Source: Candidatus Multivoradales bacterium (GTDB lineage: Bacteria; Acidobacteriota; Thermoanaerobaculia; Multivoradales; J023). Taken from it: 64,000 nt of DNA. Position numbers and translations under genes: made by a program. The stretch spans positions 2,272,001-2,336,000 of the forward strand of contig CBDFLE010000005.1 in NCBI GenBank assembly GCA_965248925.1, written 5' to 3'. Positions within the stretch are counted from its first letter, which is position 1. Every line of letters starts with the position of its first letter. Shown here in pieces: positions 27,890-58,629 of this stretch. The notes under the pieces are model-generated. The model saw only the letters and a list, made by a program, of their open reading frames with translations, was not told the origin of the DNA and made no database searches.

Positions 27890-28309
27890 GTGATGAATCC
27901 TCTCGCCTGTCTACTCCCCAGCTTATGCGTCTGCCTCGTCTGGCTCGCCCAGCCGGCCGACGCCGCGACATCAACGGCGGCCGAGACGACCTTTCTTCCC
28001 GAGCTGACCGTGCTAGCCCTCGATCCAGCCGCCCAAGGCGCAGTAGTGAAGGTGGCAGACGGCGACTTGCTGTTGCTGGTCGCTGGCGATCTGCTGCCCG
28101 GTGAGGCGATCAAGGTGCGCCGCGTCCTGGCAGACCGGCTGGTGCTGAGTGAGCGCCTGCCCTCGGGCGTCCAGCGTCTCGCCTGGCTCTACCTGATCGA
28201 CCCCGACAGTGGTCGCTCGCAGCTGCGTTACCTCGACCGACTACCCGCTGACAACTCCCTCCAGCTGAGCCCGGCAACCCCGGATCTGGGCACGGAAGAC
28301 CGCCGATGA
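27890..28309 (+). CDS. Small secreted protein with PilP/GspC-HR-like beta-domain pattern
   Basis: Signal peptide ending ...LAQPADA, then AVVKVADGDLLLLVAGDLLPGEAIKVRRVLADRLVLSERLPSG. Its stop overlaps the start of the giant gene (ATGA 28306-28309). The CDS is well supported; the family call is by eye. Confidence 0.7.
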   Translation: MMNPLACLLPSLCVCLVWLAQPADAATSTAAETTFLPELTVLALDPAAQGAVVKVADGDLLLLVAGDLLPGEAIKVRRVLADRLVLSERLPSGVQRLAWLYLIDPDSGRSQLRYLDRLPADNSLQLSPATPDLGTEDRR

Positions 28310-31300
28310 AGACCTGCCGCAGATCGTCGCTAGCTCTCATTCTCGGGCTACCCCTGCTCTTGGCACTGCTGTGGATCGGGGCATCGCCAGTGGCGGCAGA
28401 CTCGCTCTGGCTGAGCACCGATCCGCTTGCTACCAAGGATCCAGCAGCAGCGCCCAAGGCTGACCACGTCACCTTTCGCCAAGACCATGGTGTGGTGGCG
28501 GTGCTGGAGGTCGAAGGCAATTACGATCTGCGCATCGACGGTGTGCTCAACAGCGAGCTGCGGGCCGCGGTGGGCCAGGAATTCTTGGCTCACCATCCCG
28601 ACATCTACGATTTCCTGGTTGTTTTTACTTCTTTCGAAGTGGATCTGGGCCCGCAAGTGCTGGGCAACCATCTCGGCTTGCGCAATTCGGTCGCCGGCAT
28701 CGGCTTGCCACTGTTCGACAACAGCTCGCTGTTCGGCAGCAACAGCCGGTTACAGGGCTACATCGACATGCGGTCGGTAACCCAAAATCCCACCCAACCG
28801 CTGGCTGCAGAATTCGAATCCACCCTCACCGTGCTCAGCCACGAACTAATGCACCAATGGTGCTGCTATGTCGACTTTGAACTCGCCAATGGCTCGATCA
28901 GCGACTCGCTGCGAGCCGCCAACGGCCATTGGAGTTATCTGTTAGCTAGCGACGCCTCGGTGATGTACGGCGGTGAATGGCAGGACCAGGGTGACGGCAC
29001 CTTCAGCAACTTGCGACGCCAACGCGCCTACGGCCCGCTGGACCGCTATCTGGCCGGATGGCTGAGCACCGAGGAGGTGCCGGCGGCGCTGCTGATCGAC
29101 AATCCAGCGATCGACCCGGCCACTCCGCCGCCAGCACCGGGGACGCTGCTCAGCGGCATCGCCTCGGCGATCGAAATCGCCGCTGTGGTCGCCGCCGAGG
29201 GCCCGCGCCTGCCAGCCACCGACCAGGCGCAGCGGGACTTCCGCATCGCTTTTCTGCTGCTGCTGCGACCGGGCGAGGCCGTCGCCAATCGAGACCTGGC
29301 CGGCCTCGAGCGTGTCGCCGCCGAGATCGCCACCCGCTTCACCGTGCTCAGTGGCGGTCAGGCGCTGGCCGACAGCGGGCCTTTGGCCGACTCCGAGGGC
29401 ACGATTGGTACCCCAGGCGGCACTTTCGGTGGTGATCCACGACCCGCCCAGGACCTGGACCTAGCGGCCGCGCTGACCTGGCTGCGCGGCCGCCAACAGC
29501 CTGCCGGCTATTGGCAAGACACCGCCGGTACGCGGGTGCGCGACACGGTGATCGCCCTGCGCACCTTGAATGCTCTCGATCCCACCTTCACCGGCGCTCC
29601 GCAGGCCCTTGTCTGGCTGGCACAACAAGAGCAGCCCAGCACCGACTCGGTGGCTCGCCTGGCCGCCGCCCTGAGCCTCGCCGGGCAGGACGTCAGCAAC
29701 CTCCGCGAGCAGCTCGCCGGGCGCCAGAACGCCGGCGGCGGCTGGGGCATCGAAGCCAACGCGGCTAGCGATCCCCTCGACACCGCCCTGGCTTTAGTGG
29801 TCCTCGGCGGCGCCCTGGCCGAAGATCCGGCGGTCGGCTTTCTCGAAGCCAGCCAGCGGACTGATGGTGGTTGGGGACACGTTGCCGCAGGACCCAGTCG
29901 CACCACCACCACCACCACGGTACTCCGCGCTTTGCAGGCCGCCGATCGTCAGGGAGCTGCACTCGACGCCGCTTTGAGCTTTCTCGGCGGTCGTCAGAAT
30001 GGCAACGACGGCGGCTTTGGCGATAGCCCGTCGACGGTGCACGACACCGCCCAGGTGATCTCCACTTTGAGCCGCCTGGAAGCCCTCGAGCACATCGACT
30101 CGGCGGCAGCCAAGGACTTTCTCGCCGGCCGTCAAACCGACGATGGCAGCTGGGACGGCAGCGTTTACGCCACCGCCTTGGCGGTCGACTCCCTGCGCCG
30201 CTTCGAAGTCCCGGACTGGAACTTCGCCCAGGGCCTGTCGGCGCAGCCGGCTTCCCCCCGCGATGGCCAGCGGGTACAGCTCGAAGTGAGCGTGCGTAAC
30301 GCTAGCTCGGCGGCGGCGCCCGCCGCCACCTTGCGCTTCTACAACCACCCACCAGAGCAAGGGGGCATAGTGATCGGCGACGAAGTCCCGATCCCCGCCT
30401 TGCTCCTCGGTCAGAGCGCCACCCTGGGCACTACCTGGGACACTTTCGACCAGGCCGGGCCACGGCGACTGGTGGCGGTGATCGACCCTGACAATCTGGT
30501 CGCCGAAGCCGACGAATTGAACAATCGCAGCCAGCTCGATCTCACCGTCGAGCCACCCCCCGCCGGGATCGACCTGGAGATCGACGCCAGCGAAGTGATC
30601 GCCATGCCGGCGCACCCTACCCGTCTGCCTACTGCGGTCGAAATCGCCGCCGTAGTGCGCAACTTCGGCAGCAGCGACGCGGCAAACGTGGTCCTGCGCC
30701 TATTCCTCGGCGAGCCCGAGTTCGGCCAACTGCTCGACCAAATCGTGCTGCCCCAGGTCGCCGCCCGCAACAGCAGCAGCGGTCTCTTGACTTTCCAATT
30801 GAGCGATCCGGGCAGCTTCGAGCTGTGGGTCGAGGCGGCCCCGGAGGGCGATGTCGAGCCCAGCAACAACCGGGCGCTGGTGCGGGTGGAGACCGCCCCA
30901 GCCCTCGACCTGGAAATTCTGGCCAGCGACCTGCAAGTCTCCGCCGACCCTGCTGTGCTCGGTTCCGATGTCACCTTTACGGTGTTGGCGCACAACCGTG
31001 GCACGGTGGACTCGGTGAGTTTCGCCCTGGCTTTGTCGGTGAGCGACGGCACCGAGGTCCGCCAACTGCCGACCCTCAGCACCCAATTGGCCGCCGGCCA
31101 GACGGTCGAGCTGGAGATCCACTGGCGGGTCGATCTCACCGGCGCCTTGACCTTCACTGCCGCTGCCGACCCGGATGGGCTGCTGCCGGAGAACGACCGG
31201 GACAACAACCAGGCGAGCTTGGCTTTCACCGCCAGCGCATTGACCGAGCCCAACCTCAGCGTGGCATCGCTCGACCTGAGCTTCGACCCGGAACCGGCCC

Positions 31301-34300
31301 TCGCCGGCGCACCGCTACAGCTGTCGATTCTGCTGCGCAACACCGGCGGCACCGCCCTGAGCAATGTGGCGGTCGCTTTCTGGGACGGCCATCCGCAGCA
31401 GGGAGGCAGCCGCATCACCGAGACGACGGTCGCCGCCCTGGCCGCTGGCGACCAAGCCCTAGTCAGCGCCAGCTGGATGGTCAGCGGCGACCAAGATCGA
31501 CTGATCTATGCCACCGCCGACCCGGATGATGCGGTGGCCGAAATCGACGAGAGCGACAATCTCGCCTTCCGTCCACTGAGCGTTCTCGGTCTGCCCGACC
31601 TGGTGCTCTCGGACGCCGCCCTGAGCCTCACTCCCCCCTTCCCGACACCGGGGGAGACGGCCTTGCTCAGCGCCCGGATCAGCAACCTCGGCGAGCGCCC
31701 CGCCGGTCCTTTTGCGGTTCGTGCTCTGCGTCTCGACGCGGCCGGCAACGAAGTGCTGATCGGTGAGCAGAGCCTCAGCATTGCCGCCTTCGACGAGGAC
31801 TCGGTGAGCTTCTCCCTGACCCTGCCCGCGGACGATCAACCCGGACTGCTGCGGATCATCGCCGACGTCTTGGACGAGGTGGTCGAAGGCCACGAGGACA
31901 ACAACCAAGCCAGCTTGGCTTTCGCCGTTCAAGGCAGCGATTTCTTCGTCAGCGAGCGCTATTTCTCGCCCGACGGCGACGGTCTGCAAGACAGCACCCG
32001 ACTGTTCTTCCGCCTACCGGCGGCGGCCGATGTCGACCTGGTGGTGCGCAACCTCGAGGGGGCCGCGATCCGCCGCTTCGAACATGTGCTAGCGAACGGC
32101 GCTAGCAGCGGCGAGACGCTGTGGGACGGCCGCGACGATCAAGGGCGCTTGGCGATCGATGGCGACTACCGGCTGACCATCGAGTCGCATCCCGAGGGCG
32201 AGACGCTGGGCGAGGTGCTGGGCACGGCGCTGGTCAGTCTCGACACCAACCACTCCAGCTCTCGCCTGGCTTTGGGTAGCGAGTTCGCTCGCTTCACCCG
32301 CTTCACTTGCGAACTCTACGAAGCGCAGCGTTTTGAGCTCAGCGACGACGAACGTTGGCTCTACTTCCAGGCCCTCGACGACACCTTCCAACCCGGCCTT
32401 TACCGGGCTCGGCCCAGCGGTCCAGGGGTGCCACAAGAGGTCTTGCGCGGTCGCTTAACCGACTTCGCGGTTTCCGCCAACGCCAGCCGGCTGGCCTTCT
32501 CGCCCGATCTGGCATTCGGCGATTTTGAAGATGTCTTCCTGGCCGCTGGCGATGGCAGCTCCGCCAGCTTGGCGCGTCCCGCCAGCCGGGTGCTGGCGTT
32601 CGACTACCTCGACCGCCTGTTGCTGTTGCACCGCGCCGGCAACGACCACTTAGAAGCCCTGCCGCGAGGCGGCGGCTTGCCCATCGAGCTGGCCTCTTGG
32701 CCGGCCACCGAAGACTGGCGCTACGCCCTGTCGAGGGATCGCCAGAGCTTGGCGATCCTGCTCGATGGCAGCGAAATGCGCCTCTTCGACCTGCTCAGTG
32801 GCACTACGGCGACGCTCACTATCCCCGGCGCTAGTGATCCCTTCACCCTGCCTAGAGACGGTGGCGATCACGCTGTCATGCGCTGGTCCCCGGACGGCAG
32901 CCTGCTGGCCATCGCCGATGAGGACGGCGAACAGTTGCACCTGCTGGATCAGGGCGGCACCCTGCTGCACAGCGTGCCGTTAGCCGCGGCTGACTATCCC
33001 GCGGCGTTGCAGGACCTCGACGAATTCAGCCCCCAGGACTATGCCAACGCGAACTTGCGAGCTGTGCGACCGATCGAATGGAACAGCCGCGGTGACCAGC
33101 TTGCGGTGCTGCTGATCTTCAGCGGCAATGGCATTGACTTCTTCGCCGTGATGACGGTCGACGCCAGCACCGGCAGCGCCGCCGCAGCAGCTTGGTCGGC
33201 AGCGGTCGAGACCGCGCCGGTCATGTCGCCGGTGATCCTCGGCAAGGCTCTCGGCGAACCCAGCGAGCTGTTGCCCTTCGAAAGCGGGCAGATTCCCTCG
33301 CGCATCGAATGGTGGCACCCTGACGAGCAGCTGTTGCTCTATGGCCCGCAGGGCATCGAGCTACGGCCGGGGCTACCCTTGGATCGGGTATTCGAGGATT
33401 TCGACGACTTCAGCCCCCTGGCTTTTCTGCCCAGTGGCCGCGGCCTGATCTTCTCTACAGTTGACGGCATCGACGATCCCGGCTGTTTTGGCGACGATGT
33501 GCCAGATCTGTGGTCCTTCTTCTCGCTACTGAATCTGTGGGTCGAACTCACCGTCGAGGCCAGCGAGCAGCTCGGCACTTTCCAGCTCAGTGGCACCGCC
33601 GCCGACCTTCACCTCGCCAATTGGCGCCTGGAATGGCGGCGCACTACCGAGCTCGAAGAGGTTTGGCGACCGATCGCCGCGCCGTCGTCGACCGCGGTGG
33701 TCGATCAGCCCTTGGCGCAGTGGATAGCACCGGGACCGGGACTCTACGAAGTCCGCTTGCTGGTCACCGACCTCGCCGGCAACCAACGCCAGGTGCGCCG
33801 CATGGTGGCCAACGCCGACACTCCGTCGATCGCCAATGTGCGGCTCGAACCGGCGGTGTTCTCCACCACCGGTGGGTCGACCCTGGCCAACCACACTGAA
33901 GTGATCTACGACGTCTTGCTGCCGGTCAACCTGCGTTTCGATATTTTCGACGTTTCAGGCACCTTCGTCACCACTCTCCTGCGAGACCACCCCACCGCTG
34001 GCTCGGGCTTCCGCCAGCTGTGGAACGGCACTGACTCCCTCGGCCGACCGGTGCCGGACGGCGGCTATATCATCCGCGTCGCCGGCCTCGAGTTGGCGGT
34101 AGAAATCGACTCGGCGACACCGCGGATCGAGCATGGCGCCACCCTGCGTACTGAGCGCCGGATCGAGGGCAGCTGCGGAGACTTGCTGCCCATCCAGGAT
34201 CTGCAACCGCTGCGGCTGTTTGACTTCTTCGAACCCAACTTGGATACGACCTCCTTCGAGCACGGTGCCGGCGCCACGCCAGCAATCTGGCAACCGGTCG

Positions 34301-37300
34301 GCAGCGACCTGATCGACTGCTTCGCTAGTCAGACCTCGGATTTGCGGTGTCAGATCAGCGTGCCCTCATTGACCGCAGCGACTAGCTATCGCGCCACCGC
34401 CACCGACCTGGCCGGCAACCGCTCGGTGGTGGTGTCGCCACCGAGGGTGCAAACCGCCCTGCTGATCGAGAGGATCGATCCCCCTGCGGCCGGTCGCGAC
34501 CGTCGGCTCGGCGGTCGCCTACAGCCGTTCTTCCCGCCCTCGCTGCCCGGCGATCTGCTGCTGCATCAAGCTCAACTGCTGCGTCTGTTGGTTGCCGAAT
34601 CGACCGCCGCGGCGCTGAATTCGATCAGCATCCAGTACCGTCCAATCAACGCGGCCGCTCCCTGGTTATCCCAGACGGTCGCCAGCTCAGCGCCCTTGGA
34701 TGGTCGCTTCGAGGTAATTTGGGACGCCACCTTGGCCCTTCGCGGCGTGGAGTTGGAAGTGCGCCTGCGCGGCCTGGCCAGCGATGGCTCGGAACTGCTG
34801 TCGAATTCCTTCCCGCTGCTGCTCGACCCGGTCGAATCCCGCGGCCGACTGCGCCCCGCCGATCTCGAACCGACGGCCCCCCACGGCGAGTTGCTCAGTA
34901 CTTTGCTGACCGAGGCCGCACTCGATCTTGACCATCAAAGCGTGCTCTGGGCGGTGGTTAAGAGTGATGATCCGACCCTCCGGCTGAGTGCCTCGATCTC
35001 CAGTCTCGACGACCCAGCCTTCGCCTCAAGCCAGGCCCTAGCGGTGGCCATCAGCGCTCAGGGGATCTACCTGCTGGTGCCGCGCCAGCCACTCGACGAC
35101 GACTCCACTTATCTGCTGAGCTTCCGCCTCAGCCGCCCCCTGTCCTGCCCCGACGGTGGCCTGCCGTTTTCCTTGGATTCCAGTCTGGGTTCCGCGCTGA
35201 GTGTGGAGATCGACAGTCGCTTCGAGGCCACCGACTGCGACCCTGCAGACGCCAGCTTGGAAATCTCGATGGTGCCTCGGGGCGGGGCGCTGGTCAGCCT
35301 GCGACTCGAACAGCGACTAGGCGACGAACTCAGCACGGTGTTCAGCATTCAGCAGCCGGAGGATGGCGAGACCTACCGTTTCACGCCCTCGTTGAGCCTG
35401 CCGCTGGAGCAAGCAGTGACTTTCATTGCCGCGGTCCAAGACGGCTCCGGCATCCCTGCCTACGCCCAACTCGAGCTACCCGGCCAGCCTGCGCTGCCGC
35501 TTCTCGACCTCACCCAGCCCGGCGCCAGCCAGCGCCTGTGCGGCGGCGCCGAGATCCCGCTGGCGGGCTCGATCGACAGCGAACTGCTTTTCGCCTACCG
35601 CCTGCAGCTGAGTCGCGACGGCGAATCGTTCTCAACCTTTCACGAAGTCACGCAGGCCACCAGCCTTGACAGTCTGCTAGCGATCTACGGCGACGCCGAC
35701 GAAGAACCCTCCTTGGCCGCCGGCCCAGCCAGTTGGCGTTTGCAGGTGGTCGATATTGGTGGCAATGTGGTTTGCGCCGAAGTCGCGACCGAGATCGTCG
35801 AACTTCAAGCGATGCCGCTGATCGCTCTCGACAACCCTTTGATCTCCCCCAACGGCGATGGCCTCCTCGACCAGCTGACGGTGACCTACGACAGCGCTGA
35901 TCCGGCCACCCTGAGCCTGGCGATTCGCGATCCGGCTGGCAATCTAGTGCGCCAGCTGGCCAGCAGCGTGGCCATCCAAGGCAGCGGCGCCTTGAGCTGG
36001 GATGGACATGACGCCTCAAACCAACTGGTGGCGGATGGGGTCTACACCGTGGCCGCCAACTTCGGCGGCCTGTGTGGCGATCTGCAAAGCCTGCTGCTAG
36101 CGGTGGAGGTCGACACCACGGCGCCAGAAGTCGCCATCGCCTTCCCCCGTCCGGGCGATCCCCTCGACACCCTGATCGAGATCTTCGGCAGCGCCATCGA
36201 CCGAAATTTCTCGCAGTTCACTGTCGAGCGCAGCGCCACCGGCAGCGCGGTGTGGAGCCTGATCGACAGCGCTACCACGCCACGGCAAGACGGCCTGTTG
36301 GCAGTGTGGAATAGCTTCGGTCTGCAGGGTGCGCACAGCTTGCGTCTCAGCGCCAGCGACCGGGCCGGCAACCGGGCCAGCACTCAGGTCGACTTGTTCT
36401 TCGATCAGCGCCTGGAGCTGATCAGCGACCTCAGCGCGGTGCCCCGGCTGCTGTCGCCCAACGGCGATGGCCAACTCGACGCCAGCTCGATCGTCTTCGG
36501 CCTCAGCGCCGCGGCGCGGATCGACTTGCAAATCGTCAACAGCGACGGCGCGGTGCAGCTCGACTTGCTGAGCGCGGTCGAGCGCGGCGCCGGCACCCAC
36601 CCCGCCCGCTGGACCGGTGAACTGGCCGGTGGCATCTTGGCCGACGACGGCGACTACCGCCTGCGACTCACCGCCGCCCCTCTCGACCAGCCGTTGGCGC
36701 TGCAAGTCGAAGACCTCGTGCTGAGTGTCGATGCGAGCCCTCCGACCCTGGCTCTCAGCCAGCCCGGCGCGGGCAGCGTGGTGCGCGGCACCGCGGCCAT
36801 CACCGGTTCGGTGACCGATCCTCACCTGCTGGCTTACCGGGTCGAACTGGCGAGCGGCGACGCCGGCCCGTGGAGTGTGCTGGCGACCGGCAGCGTCGAG
36901 CGGCTCGACTACGACTTCGCCCACCTCGCCAACGTGACCGAGGGTGGTTACTTCCTCCGTCTAGCGGCCGAGGACAGTGCCGCCAACGGCAGTTCGTTGC
37001 CAGTCGCCTTCACCGTCGACAACACACCGCCCGAAGTCAGCTGGCAGCTACCTGAGAACGGTGCGGTGTTGAGCGGGGTGAACGGCCCGCAGAACTTGCT
37101 CGGCAGCCTGGTGGAGCTGAACCTGGTGCAATACCGCATCGAATTCGGCGCCGGTTCCAACCCCGCCAGTTGGCTGCCGATTGCCTTCGGCACCGAAGTC
37201 AGCGGCAGCACCGTCAGCACGCCTTGGGACATCGCCGCCGTGGCCGATGGCCCCTACATCCTGCGCTTGCTGGCCGAAGATGGCGCCGGCTGGATCAGCG

Positions 37301-49200: not shown

Positions 49201-50900
49201 ATCTGGTGCTGCGCCAGCCGATTTCCTCGGTCGCCTTCCCCCAGGATCCGGCGGCTCTGCGCCGCACCAACCGCGACGACAGCCAGGGCACCGACCTCAC
49301 CGTGCTGCACGGCCTGTGGCAAGACACCCTGGCGATCGCCGTCGAGGATCCGCACGGCAACCCGGTGGCCAACCAAGACGTGGCTTTCACCAACACCGTC
49401 TTCGTCGCCCCTGGCATCACCTGCACCAACGCTCCGCCGGACCCCACCCCAGGTGCCTTCTTCGACGCCTCAATCGACTCGATCACCGGTGGCTTCACCG
49501 GCTGCCCGGTCACTACGCCCCGTTTCGGCGATTGCGGCAGCTCCGATTTGACCCTGAGAACGACCTCCTCGGGTCAGGTCTCGGCCGGTTTCATCGCCGG
49601 CCCCAGCGCCATTACCAGCTACCCGGCAACCGTCAGTTCAGCCGCCTTGCCACCGCTGTCTTACGAGTACAGCATTTCCTTCATCAACAACACGGGCCTC
49701 AACCACGACCACTGCGGGCCGCTGGCACAGCGCTTCGTGCGCACTTTCGGGTTCTTCGCCGACGCCGCCGGCCAGCCCAGCTCGGCAGTGCGAGCCGGCC
49801 AGGTCTACGACCCACCGGTCGGAGTCGAGGCCCTCGAATGGGTGCCCGAGTGCCAGGGGATAGGGATCGCCGACCCCAGCCCGGGGGGACCGCTGTTCTT
49901 CCTGGTCTGCAACGAGCTACGAGGCGAGTGGCGACCCGCCTATTTCTACCAGGACGGCAGCCATCCGCTGGCGGTTGAACTGCTGCCCGCCGGCACCACC
50001 ACGCCGCCACAGATCGACAACCTCCTCGGCCGCCTCGAGAGCCGGCTGCAAGCCGGCCTCGACCCAGCCTTGCACACTGCTCGGGTGTCGCTACCAGTGC
50101 TGCCCAAGAGTCCCTACCTCGACGACTTCAATGGCGAAGTCACTGTGCTCGAAACCCCCGAGGACTACCTCGCCGTCGGCCTGCTCGACATTGCCCTCGG
50201 ACTGATCGCCAACATCGACCAAGAAATCGGCAGTCTGTGGGGGGTGCAAGCTCAGATCACCAGCTTCGAGCCGCCTATCGTGCCCCTCGACGACGACGGC
50301 CTCGCAGCTGAGCCGGTAGCGGTGAGCTACCAGATCGCGCCGGCCGAGTATCAGCCCACTAGTGCTTTCGTCGAGCTGCTGCGCGACGGCCAACAGGTCG
50401 ACCTCTTGCGCGGCCAGAGCATCGCTGGAGAAGGTCTCGCCGAGCTGCCCCGCGGCCTTGAGCTGGGCCTCGACGGTCTGTGGCAGGCCGAGCTGGTGCT
50501 CAATCTCGACACTCCGATCGAAGTACGCGGCGACCCCGTGCCGGTGCCCCTAGAGCAGCAGCTCTTCGCCGACTACAGCCGCGCCTTGGCGGTGCGCCAG
50601 GATGTCGACCTGCTCAACCAGCGACGCTGCGCCCAGCCGACCCTCTTCAGCTTTGAGCTCAACCGCCCGGCCGAGGTCACCCTGATCGCCCGCCGGATCG
50701 AGAGCGTCGAGACCGACGGCAGCCTCAACACCGCCGCCGCCATCACCCTGATCGAAGCCGAGATGTTTGCCGACGGCGAGCACGGCGAGCCGATCAGCCC
50801 CACCGACCTGCCCCCCGGCGACTACCTGATCGAGCTGCGCGGCATCGACGCGGTGGATGGCTACGAGGAGGTCCGCGAGGCCCGGCTGAGTTCCGATTGG
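45948..50900 (+). repeat. Direct repeat copy 1 (portion matched within window)
   Basis: GTTGGCGTTGGGCGACCAGCAGATC... at 45948 recurs at 59036. Colinearity continues to the window end (offset 13088, then 13100 after a 12-bp insertion). Confidence 0.97.
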
Positions 50901-53900
50901 GACATCTCCGAAATACTGCCCATCGGCCATACCTTGGTCCACGGTGTCGACCTTTTCGATGGCCACCTCACCATCAGTAGAACCGATCTCGAAATCCCCG
51001 GCCGCGGCATCGGCCTGGCGCTGCGGCGCACCTATTCGAGCCTGGCGGTGTCGAGCGGCGGCCCCTTCGGCCTGGGCTGGAACCATCGCTACCAGTCGCG
51101 AGTCGTGATCACCCCCTGCGGCGAGGCCATCTTGATCGGCGGCGAGGGCTCGGGCCTGCGTTTCGTCGACGATGGCCAGGGCGGACTACGCCCGCTGCGC
51201 GGCTCTCACGGCACCCTGCGGGCCGACCCGGCTGACGGCGGCTTCGACTTCTTCACCACCTCCGGCAACCGCTTCCACTATCTCTTCTCGGAAGACAGCA
51301 CCTGGCATTTGGCCTGGACCGAAGACCCCAACGGCAACCGCACCACCCTCACCTACATCGCCGGCGCCGATGGCCCCCTGCTGCGTCAAGTCACCGACTC
51401 CAGCGGCCGAGCCCTGGTTTTCGACTACCGCCAGGCCAGATTTGCTGCCTGGGATGGACCGGTGATCGAGCACATCACCGGCCCTGGCGGCCTGGCGATG
51501 AGCTTCGATTACGACCGTTTCGGTAACCTGATCACCGCCCAGCGCGACAACCAGAGTCGCATCGAGCGCTACACCTACCAGACCCAGCCCAACGCCGGCC
51601 TGGAGCTGCGGCCGGTGATGACCTCGACGACCAATGGTCTCTCAGGCGCCAGCACCCATTACACCTGGCAGAGCGGCGCCGTGGCCATCGAAGCCGGATT
51701 GTCGATCGATGCCTTGCTAGTAAGCTCGATCACCCACCCTGAAGGAGGAGTCGCCACATTCGCCTTCGATCAGCAGCTGCTCGGCAACGCCGCCACGCTA
51801 GAGCTAGAGACCACCGTCACCGATCGCCGCCAGCGGGCCACCACTTACCGTCTTAACCGCTACGGCAGCCCGGTGGTGATCACCGACCCCATCGGCCACA
51901 CAACCCGCAAGACCTGGACCCCCGGCGACGTGCTGATGCTCAGTCGCACTGACCAGAATGGGGTCGTCACTAGCTTCGAGTACGACCAGCACGGCAACCG
52001 GACCACCGAGCGCGTCCAAGTCACCGACGAGACCGGCACCCTGGTCACCCGCGAGCGCCTGAGCACTTACTTTTCGCCCTCAGCCTTTATCGCAGAAGGC
52101 ATCAAAAACCACCTCAAGAGCCACACCGACGGCCGTGGCCACACCACCCAATTTGAGTACGACGCCCAGGGCAATCTGACCCGCCAACACATCACCGTCA
52201 TCGATGCCGAGGGCGCCGCCTCCACCGTCGAGAGCCGCCACACCTACTACTCAAACGGCGACCGCCGCACCACCACCGATGCTCGCAGCCACGCCAGCAC
52301 CTTCACTTGGGACACTTTCGGCAACCCGGCCACCGTGCGCGACCGCGAAAACGGCCTGACCACCTTCGCCTTCGATTCACGAGGCCGCCAGCTCAGTCAG
52401 ACCGACCCCAACAGCCACACCACCCGGCTGGCCTACGACGACCTAGACCGCCTGATCCTGCGCACCCTCGCCGACGGCAGCGTAGAGCAGATCCAGCACG
52501 ACGACATCGCCCGCACCCGCACCCAGATCGATCCCCGTGGCCACGCCACCCGGACCAGCTTCGATCTAGAAGGCCGGCCCATCGAGATCGTCAACGCCGA
52601 GGGCGGTCAGCAGCAGATGGAGTACGACCCAGAAGGCAACCTAACGCTAGAGAGCACCGTCTTCGACGCCACCACCCTCCGCCACAACACCCTGCTGGTT
52701 TACGACGACGCCGGCCGCCTGATCCGTCGCGAAGAGCCCGAGGGCCGCACCACAGACCGAGAACTAGACCCAGCCGGCAACGTCCTGCGCCAGACCCTCG
52801 CCGACCGCGGCGACCCGAGCTTCACCCCCCGCGTCACCGAGACCGACTACGACCGGCTCAACCGCCCCATCGAGACCCGACGCCTGCTCGACGCCGGCTT
52901 CATCGCCGGCCAGATCGCCTTCGATCTGGAAAACAACCCCGTCCACAGCACCGACCCTCTCGGCCGAGTGACGACGATCACATTCGACGCCCTCGACCGC
53001 GAGATCGAGCGCACCGAGCCCGAGTGGAAAGCCGGCACCCCGAGAGTCAGTCAACGTTTCTGGGACGGCAACGGCAACCTGATCAAGACGGTGCTTTTCA
53101 ACGAGCCCGAAAACCAGATCCGCGAGACCACCTACGATCGCCTCAACCGCCCGATCCGCCAGCTCGACGCCACCGGCGAGCTGCGGACGATGGAATACGA
53201 CCCGGCAGGAAATCTGACTGTCAAGATCGACCGCCGCGGCCACCGCACCGAGCACCAATACGACGAACGCAACCGCCGCATCAAAACCACCGTCAAGCTC
53301 GCCGCTGGCAACGCCATCACCGAATTCACCTTCGATCCCTCTAGCAACCTGATCGAGCAGCTCCAGCCCAACCAGAACCGCATCACCCACACCTACGACC
53401 CGCTCAATCGCCGTCTCACAAGCGACGACCGCGAAGGCCAGCTCAGCCAGACCGGCTACGACGCTCGCGGCGTCCCCATCCGCCAAGAAGACGCCAACGG
53501 CAATGTCACCCTCAGCCAGTTCGACGGCCTCGGCCGCATGATCCGCCAGGATCTGCCCGAAGACCGCACCGTCCTACAAACCTACGATGTAGCCGGCAAC
53601 CGCCTAGCCACCACTAACCCCCGCGGCCACGCCACCACCGCCCGCTTCGACACCCTCAACCGTCAGATCGAAGAACTCTCGCCAGCCCCCTTCAACTACC
53701 TGCGCCAGATGACCTGGGACGACGCCGGCAACCTGCTCTCAGAAACCGACCGCCGAGGCAACACCACCGAATTCACCTACGACGACCTCGACCGCCGGAT
53801 CACCCGGCTAGAACCACCCGTCCTGAGCGACGGCTCCGAGGTCCGCTACCTCACCACTTGGGCCCAGGACACCGCCGGCAACCAGCTCACCGAGGTCGAC

Positions 53901-56900
53901 CCCCGAGGCATCCTCACCGAGAACCGCTGGGACGCCGAGAACCGCCGCACCCACACCCTGCGCGCCAATCTGCTCATCGAGCAGGTTGAGTTTGATGCCG
54001 CCGGCAACCGAACGAAAATCTGGGATGCCAACCGCAACCTAGCCCAATTCGACTATGACGAACGCCAGCTCATCATCACCGAGCGCCGCCCCCTCGGCGC
54101 CACCACCACCTTCACCCGCGACAGTATGGGCGACGTAATCCGCCGCCAAGACCCAGCCGGCAGATTCACCGATTCCACCTTCGACTTCCGCAGGCGCAAG
54201 CTCACCAGCACCCGCTTTGGCGAAGGAAATCGCCCCGAAACCACCACTTCCTCTTACGATTCCCAGGGCAACCGCATCGGCAAGCTGCGCCCCGAGGGCA
54301 ACGCCTGGACTTACAGCTTCGACGGTGCCCACCGCCTCACCGAAGTCGAAGACCCCGACGGCGATCTCACCACCTACGAACTCGACCAAAACGGCAACCT
54401 CATCACCCAGATCGACGCCGCCAGCCAACCCACCACCTACACTTGGGACGAGCTAGACCGCCGCACCTCCATCACCCAGGCCGACGGCGCCACCGAGACC
54501 TTTACGTTCGACGAAAACGGCAACCTCGCCCAACACCGAGACGCCAAAAACCAACTCTTCACCCGCACCCACGACTCGCTGAATAGGGAAATAGCCCTTC
54601 AGTACCCAGAAGACCCCTCCACCGACGACGACCTCGAGCAGATCACCACCACCTGGGACGCCAACGGCAACCACCTCCAAACCGCCGAACACTTCACGCA
54701 AACGGGGGAACTCACCACCACCCAGACCTGGGACGATTTTGATCGCCTAGCCACCCGAACCGACCGCTGGGACAACACCCTCATTCACGGCTACGATCTC
54801 AACGGCAACCGCACCCTGCTCATTGACCCGGCGGGCATCCCAACCACCACCACCTTCGACGCCCTCAACCGAGTCGACACCGTCACCACCCCCGGCGGAG
54901 TCACCGACTATCAGTACCTCGCCAACAGCCTGCTCAGCCAGATCGACTATCCCAACGGCACCACCAGCACCTGGCAATACGATCCCGCCAACCGCATCAG
55001 GGACCTCGACCATCGCCAGAACACCGCCCTGATCTCCAGCTTCCAATACCAGTACGACCGCAACGGCAACCGCACTGAGCAGATCGAGACCCACACCAGC
55101 CAGCCAGCCGAAACCACCATCTACGCTTTCGATCTAGTAGACCGCCTCGCCACCGTCGCCTACCCCGAGAAAACCGTCACCACCACCTACGATGCTGTAG
55201 GCAATCGCATCTCAGAATCGGCCGTCGACAACGGCGCCACGACGATCACCGACCGCCTCTACGCCTACGACAATCGCCACCGATTAGTAACTGTCACCGA
55301 CCAACTCGACGCCGCCCAAGCCGTCACCTACACCCACGATGCCAACGGCAATCAGTCAACCCGAACAAGAGACAGCCAGCTAACCCAGCTGACCTACGAC
55401 ACTCGCGATCAGCTCACCCAGGTCATCGAAGCCAGCGTCATCCAAGGCACCTACGCATTCGACGCCACCGGCCTCAGAGTCCAAAAGCTAACTGCTGAAG
55501 GTGAAGCGAGATACGTCTACGATCAGCAAAGCGTCCTGACTCGAGAAGACAACGATGGAATCACCAAATTCAACTACGCCCCAGATCGCTTGCTCTCCGT
55601 CGATGACCCCGTAGAAGGCCGCGCCTACTACCTCCACGACGCCCTGGGCAGCGTCGTCGGGCTGATGACCCCCGGCGGCAGCCTGCTCGGTCGATATCGC
55701 TGGGACGCCTGGGGCAACAAGCGGGCCTCAGTTGAAACCGACGCCAACCCCTTCGGCTTCACCGGCCATGAGCACGATGAGGAAACCGGGCTGATCTACG
55801 CCAAGGCACGGTTCTATGATCCGGAATTGGGGCTCTTCTTGAACTCTGATCCGGCCGAAGGCGACTTGCAGAATCCACCGAGTCTGCATCGGTATCTGTA
55901 TGCCTTCCAGAACCCGACCGTCTACACCGATCCCGATGGTAGAGCGCCCCTCGGCCTAGACTTTGCGCCTCTGCTCATTCCCGTCCAGGACGCATACCGC
56001 CAATCGCTCGCAGAAGAGTCGCGATTCCTGACCAATGCAGAATTCGACGCGCTACCCGACGCAGAGCGAGAGCGCCGCATCGACGAAGAGTTCGATCGGC
56101 TCATCACTGGTCGTCCCTCCACGCCTACCGGCACCACCAGCGAGCAGGGCAAGACCCAAGAATCCGGTATTCGTGCGGCCCTCGACAACTTCTTCATCGA
56201 CCCGTTCAGAAGGCTTGGCGAATCCGCCCGGCGCACTATTGAGGGCTTCGAGAAGCTAAGCGACAAGATCTCCACCCGCGACAACCGCGACGAATTCCAG
56301 AAAGCCAAAGAACCATCCCTTGGAGGAGCCCACGGCGGTGTAACAATCCTCGTCGAAGCCAATGAGCAAGCGGGTGTCGTGGCATCGAGAGCTGCCCAGA
56401 CAGCCCTCGATGCCGAAGAAGCCATCGGCCGTGTTAGCCTCGGCGGGTTGGGGATTGGGCTAGGGAAGAGGCTAGTAAAGAAGGGCGCGCAGGAGGGTGC
56501 GGAGTTTGGCGCGAAGGCTGCGGCGAGAGGCCCAAGAAGCACGCCAAGCGGGATACCCGGCTTACCTCGATCACTTGGAGCCGCCGGTCAGATAGAAATC
56601 CAAAGCAGCATCGGAAGTAGCAAGTATGCGGTCAGGCTAGCAGAGAGCATGGGAGATGCCGCTCAACGCGATGTCGACGCACTTATCAGTGCGCTTCGCA
56701 GCGGCAATTCAAACCCGGGTATTGGAACGAAAAATATCGGCGGCGGGTTCTTTGAACTCCGCGGCCGCAACGCTGGAAGAGTGATCGTAAGGCGGACTGG
56801 GATCAACTCCTTCGATGTTGTCGGCAAGTTCCAAGGCCATGCCCGTGGAGACGCGGCAAACTCACAGATCATCCGTCGCCTAATCGAGGACGCGCAGTGA
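46242..56900 (+). CDS. RHS/YD-repeat polymorphic toxin (3552 aa) with signal peptide, transglutaminase-like domain, Ig-like domains, DUF6531, RHS core and RelE-like C-terminal toxin
   Basis: N-terminal hydrophobic signal; YAGSMKGA..GNDVDQASLLIALYRASG..ARYV..HTWV (transglutaminase fold); GVDLFDGHL..RTYSS..FGLGW (DUF6531); dozens of YD/xDxxG repeats; core FGFTGHEHDEETGLIYAKARFYDPELG..DP..YAFQNPTVYTDPDG (DPDG 55929-55940), followed by a ~319-aa extension. Confidence 0.95.
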   Translation: MNCPTTRPRFARSFRRWLTSAGILLLASAVLATEPPAETSRTALETRILDQLARGRSIEGPLASWRSTRPVSTEESPTKTAPTSLNEALVELRQALPSKAKSRLDTSALTAAWESFQAWDLLQGDRFERTAARLDAAGLSGEPRARLERVRGDWQEFHDRLKTLLAEPLASLRTAQRTEQPALNVAAKAAAELLDTYPATLDRPMLRATSLPYRQLRLPARLPVTEPAIVPSYLDLADPGSTPTDLEPSSAAPLADEILLQAEELGYDYVAIYEFVRHQIATEWYAGSMKGALGTLRQGAGNDVDQASLLIALYRASGAAARYVGGVIELPLPWLNTQLGLDDGTAVADYLARAGIAHRPVIRGGRIAAFDVEHTWVSAHVPYSNYRGSVVDFSGRSWIPLTPALEPVERQPSTEVLAAMGFTANNFVTEMLSAAQLETPLSLLRQRVEQYLLDTDGGTYAEQLGSVTSTGQPLGLLPNGFYHPVLAVTFEDSELPASARHRLRLITRGETTAGSPAILDHQLDLHQALGRRLTLSYAPATSDDHLIINLWGGLAEVPPFLVRLRPQLYIDGRRIAVGEPVDAAKLHRFEAVVEGPFGSQEISQIVLSGAYHAIAVGGQHFQATELADNDPGDGEQLAARLLSGLAYSYGADWDAAETEIGGLLAVSPARPLPALVIASNSLRAELLLGVPQRLIWEGVTLDAALRVAEPAARDGSTETAADWMRLAALEGSALEQAIFEGQFQVAAISADRGLALARDSGIEVLRLDAGNLTAELPSLNHPQTVRDDVVALIAQGLTVEIPRQPISVSAWTGSTWRAEDPESGTAGYFLSGGLAGGATVEAPENWLLGFLADALAAPMSDSPNTDPLAGVELLVAEGTDSQLGTVDRVYRHPLAVRVLDAAGRPVQGTEVTFYIWAGDGRLLDTQNQESTSLTLRSDARGMARVKLRSGKHTAANPLFLRRFDSDIFQTRVLENVVEAVASSRLGNLVLRQPISSVAFPQDPAALRRTNRDDSQGTDLTVLHGLWQDTLAIAVEDPHGNPVANQDVAFTNTVFVAPGITCTNAPPDPTPGAFFDASIDSITGGFTGCPVTTPRFGDCGSSDLTLRTTSSGQVSAGFIAGPSAITSYPATVSSAALPPLSYEYSISFINNTGLNHDHCGPLAQRFVRTFGFFADAAGQPSSAVRAGQVYDPPVGVEALEWVPECQGIGIADPSPGGPLFFLVCNELRGEWRPAYFYQDGSHPLAVELLPAGTTTPPQIDNLLGRLESRLQAGLDPALHTARVSLPVLPKSPYLDDFNGEVTVLETPEDYLAVGLLDIALGLIANIDQEIGSLWGVQAQITSFEPPIVPLDDDGLAAEPVAVSYQIAPAEYQPTSAFVELLRDGQQVDLLRGQSIAGEGLAELPRGLELGLDGLWQAELVLNLDTPIEVRGDPVPVPLEQQLFADYSRALAVRQDVDLLNQRRCAQPTLFSFELNRPAEVTLIARRIESVETDGSLNTAAAITLIEAEMFADGEHGEPISPTDLPPGDYLIELRGIDAVDGYEEVREARLSSDWDISEILPIGHTLVHGVDLFDGHLTISRTDLEIPGRGIGLALRRTYSSLAVSSGGPFGLGWNHRYQSRVVITPCGEAILIGGEGSGLRFVDDGQGGLRPLRGSHGTLRADPADGGFDFFTTSGNRFHYLFSEDSTWHLAWTEDPNGNRTTLTYIAGADGPLLRQVTDSSGRALVFDYRQARFAAWDGPVIEHITGPGGLAMSFDYDRFGNLITAQRDNQSRIERYTYQTQPNAGLELRPVMTSTTNGLSGASTHYTWQSGAVAIEAGLSIDALLVSSITHPEGGVATFAFDQQLLGNAATLELETTVTDRRQRATTYRLNRYGSPVVITDPIGHTTRKTWTPGDVLMLSRTDQNGVVTSFEYDQHGNRTTERVQVTDETGTLVTRERLSTYFSPSAFIAEGIKNHLKSHTDGRGHTTQFEYDAQGNLTRQHITVIDAEGAASTVESRHTYYSNGDRRTTTDARSHASTFTWDTFGNPATVRDRENGLTTFAFDSRGRQLSQTDPNSHTTRLAYDDLDRLILRTLADGSVEQIQHDDIARTRTQIDPRGHATRTSFDLEGRPIEIVNAEGGQQQMEYDPEGNLTLESTVFDATTLRHNTLLVYDDAGRLIRREEPEGRTTDRELDPAGNVLRQTLADRGDPSFTPRVTETDYDRLNRPIETRRLLDAGFIAGQIAFDLENNPVHSTDPLGRVTTITFDALDREIERTEPEWKAGTPRVSQRFWDGNGNLIKTVLFNEPENQIRETTYDRLNRPIRQLDATGELRTMEYDPAGNLTVKIDRRGHRTEHQYDERNRRIKTTVKLAAGNAITEFTFDPSSNLIEQLQPNQNRITHTYDPLNRRLTSDDREGQLSQTGYDARGVPIRQEDANGNVTLSQFDGLGRMIRQDLPEDRTVLQTYDVAGNRLATTNPRGHATTARFDTLNRQIEELSPAPFNYLRQMTWDDAGNLLSETDRRGNTTEFTYDDLDRRITRLEPPVLSDGSEVRYLTTWAQDTAGNQLTEVDPRGILTENRWDAENRRTHTLRANLLIEQVEFDAAGNRTKIWDANRNLAQFDYDERQLIITERRPLGATTTFTRDSMGDVIRRQDPAGRFTDSTFDFRRRKLTSTRFGEGNRPETTTSSYDSQGNRIGKLRPEGNAWTYSFDGAHRLTEVEDPDGDLTTYELDQNGNLITQIDAASQPTTYTWDELDRRTSITQADGATETFTFDENGNLAQHRDAKNQLFTRTHDSLNREIALQYPEDPSTDDDLEQITTTWDANGNHLQTAEHFTQTGELTTTQTWDDFDRLATRTDRWDNTLIHGYDLNGNRTLLIDPAGIPTTTTFDALNRVDTVTTPGGVTDYQYLANSLLSQIDYPNGTTSTWQYDPANRIRDLDHRQNTALISSFQYQYDRNGNRTEQIETHTSQPAETTIYAFDLVDRLATVAYPEKTVTTTYDAVGNRISESAVDNGATTITDRLYAYDNRHRLVTVTDQLDAAQAVTYTHDANGNQSTRTRDSQLTQLTYDTRDQLTQVIEASVIQGTYAFDATGLRVQKLTAEGEARYVYDQQSVLTREDNDGITKFNYAPDRLLSVDDPVEGRAYYLHDALGSVVGLMTPGGSLLGRYRWDAWGNKRASVETDANPFGFTGHEHDEETGLIYAKARFYDPELGLFLNSDPAEGDLQNPPSLHRYLYAFQNPTVYTDPDGRAPLGLDFAPLLIPVQDAYRQSLAEESRFLTNAEFDALPDAERERRIDEEFDRLITGRPSTPTGTTSEQGKTQESGIRAALDNFFIDPFRRLGESARRTIEGFEKLSDKISTRDNRDEFQKAKEPSLGGAHGGVTILVEANEQAGVVASRAAQTALDAEEAIGRVSLGGLGIGLGKRLVKKGAQEGAEFGAKAAARGPRSTPSGIPGLPRSLGAAGQIEIQSSIGSSKYAVRLAESMGDAAQRDVDALISALRSGNSNPGIGTKNIGGGFFELRGRNAGRVIVRRTGINSFDVVGKFQGHARGDAANSQIIRRLIEDAQ

Positions 56901-57142
56901 GGGGCAAGCAAGAGGTTAGGACCGTGCGCGAGCTGAGCGGCGAGATCTGGGCCGAGGTTCAAAGCAGATTCAGCAACGAAGAAATCGATTGGCGTGTTCA
57001 GGGCCGCCTCGCCGATGTTGTGATGGGTATCTTGGCCCGCCACGCGGGTAAGGTCATCGAAAATGATCGGGACCTTCCAGTCTTGCCACTTCCAAAGTTG
57101 GATTTTGGCGCGACCTGCGAGGATGAGGAGCAGGCTGAATAG
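56897..57142 (+). CDS. Probable cognate immunity protein (81 aa)
   Basis: Small ORF with an acidic tail whose GTG overlaps the toxin stop (GTGA), the usual position for polymorphic-toxin immunity genes. No family recognised. Confidence 0.7.
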   Translation: MRGKQEVRTVRELSGEIWAEVQSRFSNEEIDWRVQGRLADVVMGILARHAGKVIENDRDLPVLPLPKLDFGATCEDEEQAE

Positions 57143-57212: not shown

Positions 57213-57230
57213 TTCGTGATTCAGGAACTA

Positions 57231-57566
57231 CTAGCCAGAGGCCAGCCGCTTGGCCTGATGCTGGAGGATGAGCCCATCGAGGACTGTCTTGGCGACCTTC
57301 CTGGCGTCGGGATCAAACTGGGCCAGGGCCTCGAACTGAAGCAGCAGATCATCGCTGGGTCCTCTTTCCTCGGCATCGAAGAGCAACGCATCTGCACTCA
57401 CGCTGAGAGCGACTGAGAGTTTCCGAATCGCGTCGAGTCCAGGCTGGGAAGAACCTCCCTCGTAGCGGCGCACCTGCACAACGTGGAGCCCGACAGTGTC
57501 AGCAAGCGCCTGCTGGGTAAGGCCCCGTTGCTTTCGTAGTGTGCTCAGCCGTTGTGCGAATTCCAT
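57231..57566 (-). CDS. XRE-family helix-turn-helix transcriptional regulator (111 aa)
   Basis: MEFAQRLSTLRKQRGLTQQALADTVGLHVVQVRRYEGGSSQPGLDAIRKLSVALSVSADALLF is a clear HTH_3 pattern. ATG 57566 is preferred over the ORF-track start 57620. Confidence 0.9.
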   Translation of the reverse strand: MEFAQRLSTLRKQRGLTQQALADTVGLHVVQVRRYEGGSSQPGLDAIRKLSVALSVSADALLFDAEERGPSDDLLLQFEALAQFDPDARKVAKTVLDGLILQHQAKRLASG

Positions 57567-57799
57567 CTCAAGGTGTCCCGTCCGCCGCGTCCACAAGCAT
57601 ATTTGTGGCTGAAGGGTCACTTTATTGGTCGCCTGCCCTTGCTGGTGGCCAGCGCCGTACTGACAATTCTCAACTCACTCAGAGAACCTCCTCGACGGAT
57701 CTCGATTTCCTCTGGTTGCCCAGAATCCTTGTGTCCCGGACGCAGCTCACCATGGACAGCGTGCTGCGGTCTGCCCTTCCTTCGCCGTCCCGAGCCGCT

Positions 57800-58629
57800 C
57801 TACTTGGGCGCGTAGAAGCCAGAGAGCACTCCTTGCCAGGCGGTCAAGAATTGTAGCTGCCCTCGCGGGCGCCAGCGACCGGTCCAGATCTCGCCCGGCG
57901 TACAGCCGTCGAGGCTCTGGTGCGGGCGAAGATCGTTGTACCAATAGCGGAAGACATCCCGCGGCCGTTCTGCCAGGGCGAGGCCACCTGAGTGCGCTGG
58001 TGGCGAATGCCGAGCAGAAGAAGCGAAAGCCTGAAGATCCACGAGGTGAAGACCGGCTCGTTGTCGGTGCGCAGGCACTTTGGCTTACCACCTAGCTCAA
58101 TCGCGTCGAGCAGCTGGCGCACCAGCTCGACCGACGCCTTCGTCTTCAAAGTCTGAAGGCGCAAGCAAAGCCGAGTCCCGTGATCGAGCAAGCCGAAGAT
58201 GGTCTCTTTCTGCCCGGCGGCGTTGTTGGCATAGGTGAGATCGGCGGCCCAGATCAGCCGCTTGTCGACCGTCCCAGGTTTCCTCCTGCGGATCTTCTGA
58301 CGCCAAGCGAGGATCTCCAGCTGGTGCTCTTTGAAGATCTTCGCAACATAGCTCTTGCCGACCGTCATCCGGCGATGGCGGTAGTTGCGATTGAAGGCGG
58401 CTGCGATGGCTCGACAGCCATCGGAGGGCTGCAACGCCTTGAGCCGGATCACTGCTTGCCGAACCCACCTGGGCTTGGGCCGGCAGAAGCCGCGATAGGT
58501 CGTCGGGCCGGGTGGACACTACGCTCGGCGGCGGTGCTTTGCTTTGGGCTGTTGAGCGAGCGAAGTGACCGCAAGAAGGAGAAGCAAGACAGGCGCGCAG
58601 AGCAATGCGCCGGCAAGATCGGAAGTCAT
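57800..58629 (-). pseudogene. Disrupted DDE (rve) integrase/transposase, IS3/IS481-like core
   Basis: WAADLT, LLDHGTR, LRTDNEPVF, SPWQNGR, then in another frame FRYWYNDLRPHQSLDGCTP. The frame breaks at ~57960, where the expected ERxxxTLK helix (catalytic Glu) is missing. There is also an in-frame TAG at 58519-58521 downstream of ATG 58629. Confidence 0.82.

Follow-up and report, generated by a model that had tools for sequence, protein, structure and literature searches.

A candidate four-gene RHS toxin module with a giant exported protein and a small HR-domain protein in diderm bacteria

Gene organization and products of the locus

The window analyzed here is a stretch of 64,000 nucleotides from the genome of a Candidatus Multivoradales bacterium (assembly GCA_965248925.1, contig CBDFLE010000005.1, positions 2,272,001 to 2,336,000), and coordinates are those of the window unless stated otherwise. 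On its plus strand lie four open reading frames (ORFs) at 27890-28309 (139 aa), 28306-46245 (5979 aa), 46242-56900 (3552 aa), and 56897-57142 (81 aa), encoding a small exported protein, a giant exported protein, an RHS polymorphic toxin, and a putative immunity protein, respectively. The small gene more likely starts at ATG 27893, giving a product of 138 aa. Direct reading of the sequence confirmed the coordinates and the 4-bp overlap at each of the three junctions (ATGA 28306, ATGA 46242, and GTGA 56897), by which the initial annotation had regarded the four genes as coupled. Overlaps of 4 bp are frequent in operons and are weak evidence by themselves; the arrangement is considered to be beyond chance because the same order was found in several phyla, as described below. 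Inspection by eye agreed with the earlier assignment of Sec-type signal peptides (basic n-region, hydrophobic core, AxA-type site) to the N-termini of the small, giant, and RHS proteins, with predicted sites ADA/A, VAA/D, and VLA/T, respectively; in the RHS protein, the signal peptide and cleavage site were read as MNCPTTRPRFARSFRRWLTSAGILLLASAVLA/TEP. A promoter scan 5' of the small gene found none. A GC-rich hairpin was seen by eye 3' of the 81-aa gene (about 57194-57219), and it was not reported by the terminator scan 3' of this gene.

The four products were scanned with Pfam and NCBIfam, and the absence of a family was judged at E<=0.01. The RHS polymorphic toxin (46242..56900, plus strand, 3552 aa) comprised, in order, a signal peptide, a helical region, a putatively inactive transglutaminase-like domain, Ig-like domains, a DUF6531 plug, a YD/RHS shell, an Rhs-associated core, and a variable C-terminus. 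The matches were RHS_repeat (331 bits), YD_repeat_2x (238), Rhs_assc_core (TIGR03696, 68.6), and DUF6531 (46.7), with a weak match to Big_1, and about 220 residues between the signal peptide and Transglut_core belonged to no family. The transglutaminase-like core (47004..47384, plus strand, residues 255-381) scored 33.5 bits against a Transglut_core cut-off of 23. At the position expected for the catalytic Cys motif it carries GNDVDQAS (47142-47165), which was invariant in 17 of 17 homologues. Judged by the family consensus, the catalytic Cys is presumably replaced by Asp and the catalytic Asp by Thr. This putative loss of catalytic residues agrees with the 'inactive transglutaminase' described in the available part of PMC3482391.

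The RHS shell (50943..55940, plus strand) includes the DUF6531 plug (residues 1568-1641), the YD repeats, and Rhs_assc_core (residues 3155-3233). The core ends in YTDPDG at residue 3228 (55923-55940), a DPxG autoproteolysis motif at which cleavage is predicted. In the variable C-terminal region that follows (55944..56897, plus strand, 318 aa), the first 240 aa or so are 69% identical to one paralogue, and the last 110 aa or so form a toxin domain without a named family; its 17 relatives were all 'hypothetical protein' or unnamed, and none had a Pfam domain. The toxin end had no match in Pfam, NCBIfam, or PDB sequences. An apparent likeness of its last 80 residues or so to RelE/ParE toxins was supported by no tool and was dropped. 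The acidic 81-aa product of the next gene (56897..57142, plus strand, single copy in the genome) likewise had no Pfam, NCBIfam, or PDB sequence match, and its position, taken alone, makes it a putative immunity protein.

The small exported protein (27893..28309, plus strand) comprises a signal peptide, a short linker, an HR beta-domain (about residues 32-102), and a Pro-rich tail. Its AlphaFold2 (AF2) model, built with six homologues, had a mean predicted local distance difference test score (pLDDT) of 71, with beta-core blocks of 85-92. In a VIA-align structure search covering 48,161 representative chains, the best match was 3oss_C, the HR domain of GspC in the GspC-GspD complex (Z 9.1, root-mean-square deviation 1.7 Å, 64 of 65 residues), followed by PilP, PulC-HR, a Dot/Icm chain, PilP again, LspC, and GspB. 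All nine top rows were HR-type proteins of type II secretion systems (T2SS) or type IV pili (T4P), except one chain of the Dot/Icm type IV secretion system; the PilP chains gave Z 6.4-7.9. Foldseek also ranked PilP first, with an E value of only 0.057. At the sequence level, a 19-member family profile against PDB sequences returned PilP or GspC in 9 of the 12 rows listed (E 0.012-0.82), and 9 of the 19 members matched Pfam T2SSC at E<=1. Among 60 further family representatives, 27 matched T2SSC or PilP at E<=0.01, always in the HR part of the profile; PF04351 was matched at this threshold in two, neither above its cut-off, and a curated cut-off was exceeded in one of the 60, the other 59 being below. 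The family, whose members are stand-alone proteins of 110-220 aa, comprised 851 representative clusters at E<=0.001 and 268 at E<=1e-10.

Thus, on the evidence of the model and the profiles, the small protein has the HR fold of GspC/PilP and is remotely homologous to these proteins, while, judged by profile scores, it belongs to a family of its own, made up of small stand-alone proteins, and not to the curated PilP or GspC families. The earlier designation 'PilP/GspC-like' therefore stands for the fold (Z 9.1) and for remote homology, but not for membership, as the scores fall below the curated cut-offs of both families.

The giant exported protein (28306..46245, plus strand, 5979 aa) is composed of a signal peptide, an HExxH domain, an alpha/alpha-toroid, long domain arrays, and a Cys-containing C-terminal domain. 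The arrays consist of CARDB, FlgD_ig, Big_13, fn3, PD40, DUF11, and Calx-beta domains (Pfam/NCBIfam), and the relatives of the giant are named in the sources only as 'CARDB domain-containing protein' or 'subtilase family serine protease/FlgD'. The HExxH domain (28471..29400, plus strand, about residues 56-365) contains HELMH at 28840-28854, and the H, E, and H of the motif and a later H were invariant in nine of nine aligned homologues from three phyla. It matched no Pfam or NCBIfam family; its AF2 model (pLDDT 74) gave no fold match above Z 6 and none that was convincing, and the best score of the giant N-domain in the ESM Atlas was 0.85, to clusters without names. This head probably represents an unclassified family of secreted metallopeptidases.

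The alpha/alpha-toroid of the giant (29440..30210, plus strand, about residues 380-635) is built of repeats like those of prenyltransferases, terpene cyclases, and the thioester domain (TED) of A2M. It matched SQHop_cyclase_C at E 7.8e-4 and PDB sequences at E 7e-9, and its structural matches (VIA) were to terpene cyclases and the TED of A2M/CD109/C4 at Z 5-7. A thioester toroid was rejected, as the CxEQ motif is absent from the sequence. The C-terminal domain (45781..46242, plus strand, residues 5826-5979), with the pattern FCxRSPGYWKxH...PPGS...YNxxxC, belongs to no family; it is conserved in acidobacterial giants, sometimes as two tandem copies, and was not found in proteobacterial giants at E<=1e-5. 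Complex prediction for this domain (154 aa, alignment of 11 rows) and the N-terminal part of the RHS protein (388 aa, 17 rows) scored 0.00 in two runs made without controls, and is evidence neither way.

Distribution and conservation of the gene set

A search of species-representative genomes with an RHS N-terminal profile detected 104 relatives, from which 80 loci were kept, 58 of them with at least 8 kb of upstream sequence. The acidobacterial loci came from metagenome-assembled genomes (MAGs) titled Acidobacteriota, Thermoanaerobaculia, or Holophagales, and the proteobacterial ones from Lysobacterales (Dokdonella, Tahibacter, a Xanthomonas MAG, and Chiayiivirga), other Gammaproteobacteria, Burkholderiales (Paucibacter, Rhizobacter, and Undibacterium), and Andreprevotia. 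The remainder were found in MAGs of Nitrospirae, Elusimicrobia, and Omnitrophica and in three Bacillaceae. A giant-homologous frame of at least 2300 aa, on the same strand and ending at most 1.5 kb before the RHS gene, was present in 42 of the 58 assessable loci, which belong to Acidobacteriota, Gammaproteobacteria, and Betaproteobacteria; at three more, giant matches lay in broken frames. The pair is conserved at 28-50% protein identity across three phyla, with stop/start overlaps or short gaps between the genes. The HExxH-toroid head was located at the start of a 5605-7089-aa frame in all 10 further module genomes searched (E 1e-139 to 1e-177). Since the heads match in all 10 genomes, Beta- and Gammaproteobacteria included, these giants are true relatives and not simply other Ig-repeat proteins.

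The association was also seen when the giant was the starting point. All three assessable giants found independently of the RHS gene (in genomes G035, G013, and G103) were followed by one: the 7002-aa giant of G035 by an RHS homologue of 3584 aa (43% identity), that of G013 (locus L034) likewise by an RHS homologue, and that of G103, which was detected through its head alone in an even phylum sample, by an RHS gene as well. In G001 and G022 the contig stops just after the giant.

Homologues of the small gene were detected in 4 of 40 relatives, with a giant homologue directly 3' in each. The small gene was directly 5' of the giant in all five genomes of the window's family or order that carry it and in three of five long contigs, and it lay upstream of the giant in 13 of 16 regions, 12 of these being detected by hmmsearch among 46 ORFs (E 2e-23 to 1.5e-3) and one by eye. 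Overall, a small-gene homologue precedes 18 of the 21 giants examined. Independent occurrence without conserved synteny, which the initial annotation had considered the outcome that would speak against a joint system, was thus not what was found: giant and RHS genes were adjacent at 42 of 58 loci and small and giant genes at 18 of 21, across phyla. As judged by this gene order, the three families travel together, though each can occur alone. No conserved flanking gene was detected in eight flanks from five genomes, and the module is considered to be self-contained because its flanking genes are not conserved.

The gene downstream of the toxin varies; it has no family in the window and encodes a SUKH protein in Andreprevotia, the only other locus for which it was annotated. 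The Andreprevotia gene, of the SUKH immunity-type family, lies directly 3' of the RHS gene (L126; G438:C12:2001-22000). A T2SS/MSH-like cluster 7-15 kb downstream of the same module, containing a secretin with STN and cohesin domains, was set aside as a coincidence, since it was met only once and is separated from the module by unrelated genes. At three Burkholderiales loci (L058:9019-9894, L060:8271-9338, and L070:8858-9841), an extra gene of about 290-355 aa lies between the giant and RHS genes, and that of L058 matches pAdhesive_15, an ice-binding-like adhesive domain, with 142.6 bits. In Holophagales (G042), an ORF for a bacterial EndoU nuclease (L101:8027-8599) and one for a T2SSE-type ATPase are located a few kb 5' of the module, an arrangement seen in no other genome.

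The three Bacillaceae loci (L089, L090, and L091) contain a shorter version consisting of an overlapping gene pair: the first gene encodes a signal-peptide protein of 1552-1567 aa, and the second a protein of 1276-1429 aa with homology to the N-terminal part of the RHS toxin. In L089, the one of the three loci scanned with Pfam, the first protein has a toroid and a VWA domain, and the second combines a transglutaminase-like domain with PT-HINT and an AHH nuclease but lacks an RHS shell. The toroid of the giant is 25% identical to that of the L089 partner over 260 residues (E 3e-15). The small-protein profile matched none of the 94 ORFs in the three loci. The toroid and the transglutaminase-like domain are paired in this version as well, which suggests, from a sample of three related genomes, that the toroid and the dead transglutaminase are the parts with an ancient link.

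Cassette copies and neighboring genes in the genome

The small, immunity, and intact giant genes each occur once in the assembly (7.98 Mb, six contigs, 96.9% complete), which also encodes six full RHS paralogues of 3543-3564 aa. These share 90-98% identity as far as about residue 3234-3433, beyond which they differ. Three of the paralogues are preceded by remnants of the giant 3' end, of about 98, 375, and 1073 codons, and two RHS arrays abut contig ends. We infer that the remnant-preceded copies are displaced or reserve cassettes arising from recombination within the giant gene. Altogether, 38 regions with similarity to RHS shells were detected on contigs C3-C6, many of them arrayed along C4 and near the beginning of C5. 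A minus-strand region elsewhere on C5 (C5:592042-593952) is 27% identical to RHS residues 243-837, the transglutaminase region, with no RHS shell match beside it.

One of the copies begins within the window. The second cassette (59036..64000, plus strand) starts with a remnant of about 295 nt from the 3' end of the giant gene, which matches 45948-46242 at 100% identity, followed from 59330 by an RHS paralogue that continues beyond the window edge; in the genome, this paralogue is 3560 aa long and 97% identical to the first, with a different C-terminus. The spacer between the two cassettes (57231..58452) contains, on the minus strand, an HTH_3 (Cro/C1-type) gene (57231-57620) and an integrase-core (rve) fragment (57844-58452).

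Directly 5' of the operon, at 23985-27381, are genes for an M28 peptidase (815 aa) and an aspartate/ornithine carbamoyltransferase, which are not kept beside the module in other genomes. Further upstream, the minus strand of the window (3-23770) is occupied by two genes for very large non-ribosomal peptide synthetases (5836 aa, and at least 2087 aa for the one running off the window edge), which contain one luciferase-like monooxygenase domain besides numerous condensation, adenylation, and carrier domains; they have no relation to the operon.

Relation to known systems and proposed mode of action

The toxin itself belongs to a class already known. Zhang, de Souza, Anantharaman, Iyer, and Aravind (2012, Biol Direct 7:18; PMC3482391) defined in silico a class with a signal peptide or transmembrane helix, a catalytically depleted transglutaminase, sometimes bacterial Ig domains, RHS repeats, and a variable toxin. 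In the available part of that paper, these toxins are filed under 'T2SS/Sec-dependent', surface anchoring through peptide binding by the dead domain is proposed, and the table column 'signature genes in neighbourhood' is empty for this class. The RHS architecture described here matches it, whereas the giant, the HR gene, and their conservation are not mentioned in the same part. The initial annotation had put the system forward as a candidate undescribed one, and this does not hold for the combination of signal peptide, pseudo-transglutaminase, and RHS shell, which was already in the 2012 description as far as that part of it goes. A literature search, whose scope left out most subscription journals, found no description of the HR-giant-RHS gene set. 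As far as searched, therefore, the accessory pair of HR protein and HExxH-toroid giant and its spread are new, and the toxin class is known.

No family of PAAR, VgrG, TpsA/haemagglutinin, SpvB/TcA/TcB, WXG/LXG, or autotransporter proteins was found in the operon products by the Pfam and NCBIfam scans, in agreement with the earlier observation that such markers are missing. Effectors of type VI secretion systems (T6SS) of the Rhs kind have in common with this protein the DUF6531 plug, YD shell, Rhs-associated core with DPxG, variable toxin, and downstream immunity gene; however, a Sec signal peptide is present here in place of prePAAR/PAAR, and there is no VgrG or Eag chaperone in the operon. 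A T6SS Rhs effector was rejected, as the operon has no PAAR/VgrG and neither TssC (PF05943) nor Hcp (PF05638) was matched in the 96.9%-complete genome; ORFs with PAAR motifs were located only more than 200 kb from the locus. Contact-dependent growth inhibition (CDI)/two-partner secretion was also rejected, because no TpsA domain, haemagglutinin repeats, or TpsB were present in the operon products or neighbors. A Tc toxin was rejected on the same scans, which found no TcA (VRP1) or TcB (SpvB, mid-N/mid-C) family in the giant, RHS, or small proteins. On these features, the module is not a T6SS, CDI, Tc, or type VII secretion system. Tc (ABC) toxins and the Gram-positive WapA resemble the present system in that an RHS shell toxin is fused to, or acts together with, large components of the surface or of translocation. 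WapA depends on Sec, and its action takes place in monoderms, where an outer membrane is lacking.

Bacterial teneurin-like proteins (Raoelijaona et al. 2026, Nat Commun 17:2753; PMC13018210) are Sec-dependent surface YD-shell toxins with adhesion-type N-terminal modules and immunity genes. According to the available part of that paper, they are rare, occur in many phyla including Acidobacteriota, and are defined by an FN-plug, an NHL propeller, a YD shell, and a TIP domain. By contrast, the protein studied here has DUF6531, no NHL (as judged by Pfam and not by the hidden Markov models of those authors), and a transglutaminase-like N-terminus, and no giant partner or HR protein is described in that part of the teneurin-like work.

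Taken together, the locus may be read as a four-gene polymorphic-toxin module that is conserved in diderm bacteria and has spread horizontally, with proposed Sec/secretin export, the giant as carrier, and sibling immunity, a reading that we hold to be about evenly balanced between right and wrong. In this scheme, the small, giant, and RHS products would be exported by Sec into the periplasm, where the HR domain of the small protein would couple the cargo to an outer-membrane secretin encoded elsewhere. Alternatively, the small protein may hold the N-terminus of the giant at the envelope, the proteobacterial versions being lipoprotein-like. The giant, as a string of Ig-like, beta-propeller, and Calx-beta domains, would reach out from the surface and carry or present the RHS shell. 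This may involve the toroid together with the dead transglutaminase-like domain, which are likewise paired in the Gram-positive version. The shell would then free its C-terminal toxin at DPxG into a neighboring cell, while the 81-aa product would shield sibling cells, and the extra RHS copies with giant remnants would share the single giant. We infer the carrier role of the giant, the transglutaminase docking, and the use of a secretin from the domain content, the partner class of HR domains, and the comparative pattern.

The link to a secretin deserves separate consideration. The HR domain of GspC binds the N0 domain of GspD, according to the available part of PMC3169554. The small protein shares with GspC/PilP HR domains the predicted fold and a weak, consistent similarity to the HR part of the T2SSC profile. 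To our knowledge, secretin-type N0 domains are the sole partners of HR domains. Three secretin genes, all far from the locus, were found in this genome; we take them to be of the pilQ, gspD, and cpaC types, a guess from gene sizes and order. Secretins were also found in all five other module genomes searched. The check for host secretins that had been suggested at the outset thus came out positive in every genome, but it says little because secretins are nearly universal in such bacteria and here lie outside the core.

A bolder form of the proposal, which we consider rather unlikely, holds that Sec-dependent RHS toxins of diderms cross the outer membrane and are delivered on contact by this route, which had not been recognized before. 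The HR adaptor would bring the giant and RHS proteins to a shared T2SS/pilus secretin, or the system would have a crossing mechanism of its own; the dead transglutaminase would dock on the toroid; and the module would have spread to at least three phyla by horizontal transfer, with a simpler two-gene ancestor or derivative in Firmicutes.

Several results weigh against the reading as an exported, secretin-linked toxin module. The small protein scored 19.6 bits with TIGR03021 (PilP) against a cut-off of 34.65, and 13 bits with T2SSC (PF11356) against a cut-off of 27, the latter in the HR part of the profile only. It has no GspC-type membrane anchor or PDZ domain (Pfam), in which it differs from GspC, and no lipobox was seen by eye in the version encoded in the window. 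Its gene, unlike those of both GspC and PilP, lies outside gsp and pilMNOPQ clusters and not beside a secretin, and no secretin was part of the conserved core in the survey of eight flanks from five genomes. No N0, STN, or Secretin_N domain was detected by Pfam in the giant or RHS proteins. The rigid body formed by a folded RHS shell would be as wide as, or wider than, the figure usually quoted for secretin channels. As to the association of the genes, 13 of the 58 assessable RHS loci have no giant upstream, three of 16 giants (two loci in G044 and one in G045) have no small gene upstream, and in this genome an intact giant accompanies just one of the six RHS copies. The HExxH head was found in 62 of 401 genomes of an even phylum sample, mostly in proteins of 500-1200 aa, and this domain is not module-specific because it is widespread in such ordinary proteins.

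Some of these results would be accommodated if the small HR protein were a periplasmic chaperone or membrane anchor for the N-domain of the giant, the outer membrane being crossed by vesicles, by lysis, or by the giant itself. The small gene, where present, immediately precedes the giant gene and overlaps it, proteobacterial versions of its product carry lipobox-like sequences (LLAC/LLSC/LFAC, by eye), the core contains no secretin, and the PilP and GspC cut-offs are not reached. On the other hand, apart from the one Dot/Icm chain, the nine top structural matches (GspC, PilP, PulC, LspC, and GspB) are secretin-associated proteins, and no N0-like domain was detected in the giant, which counts against this explanation too. 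A role of the small protein tied to the outer membrane fits with the absence of its gene from the monoderm version, but this absence does not discriminate between an adaptor and a chaperone or anchor. We consider this explanation somewhat unlikely.

It is also conceivable, though we judge it decidedly unlikely, that the toxin gene is a passenger. The small and giant proteins would then form an adhesin or matrix system of their own, with the giant 3' end as a favored landing site for mobile RHS cassettes whose toxin acts independently of the giant. Such an origin would account for the duplicated cassettes with giant 3'-end remnants (about 98, 375, and 1073 aa), for the insertion sequence/integrase fragments and transposases beside the cassettes, and for the copies and loci counted above that are without an intact giant (5 of 6 copies here, 13 of 58 assessable loci). 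What speaks for the functional module instead is the maintenance of the giant-RHS pair, with overlaps or short gaps, at 28-50% identity over three phyla, the shorter overlapping pair of toroid protein and transglutaminase toxin in Bacillaceae, and the RHS gene that follows each of the three assessable giants found without an RHS reference. Finally, a Tc-like ABC complex aimed at eukaryotes, with the giant as the pore-forming, receptor-binding TcA and the RHS protein as a fused TcB-TcC, is highly improbable: the RHS shell gene does adjoin a large partner gene, whose giant product offers many putative binding domains, but no VRP1/TcA, SpvB, or TcdB mid-domain family was found in any product, all of these products have Sec signal peptides, and a small gene after each toxin and polymorphic toxin ends are typical inter-bacterial traits.

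In summary, the crossing of the outer membrane by Sec-dependent RHS toxins has been filed as "T2SS/Sec-dependent" since 2012, with no accessory genes known. Two conserved accessory families that travel with the toxin across phyla have now been defined, and cultured, non-pathogenic carriers are available in Dokdonella fugitiva A3, Tahibacter aquaticus DSM 21667, Andreprevotia chitinilytica DSM 18519, Undibacterium flavidum LX15W, and Paucibacter sp. If the proposal is true, it would help to explain genomes like this one, with 38 RHS-like regions and no T6SS sheath or tube gene found. It would also provide the first function for a large family of unannotated "CARDB domain-containing" proteins of about 6000 aa.

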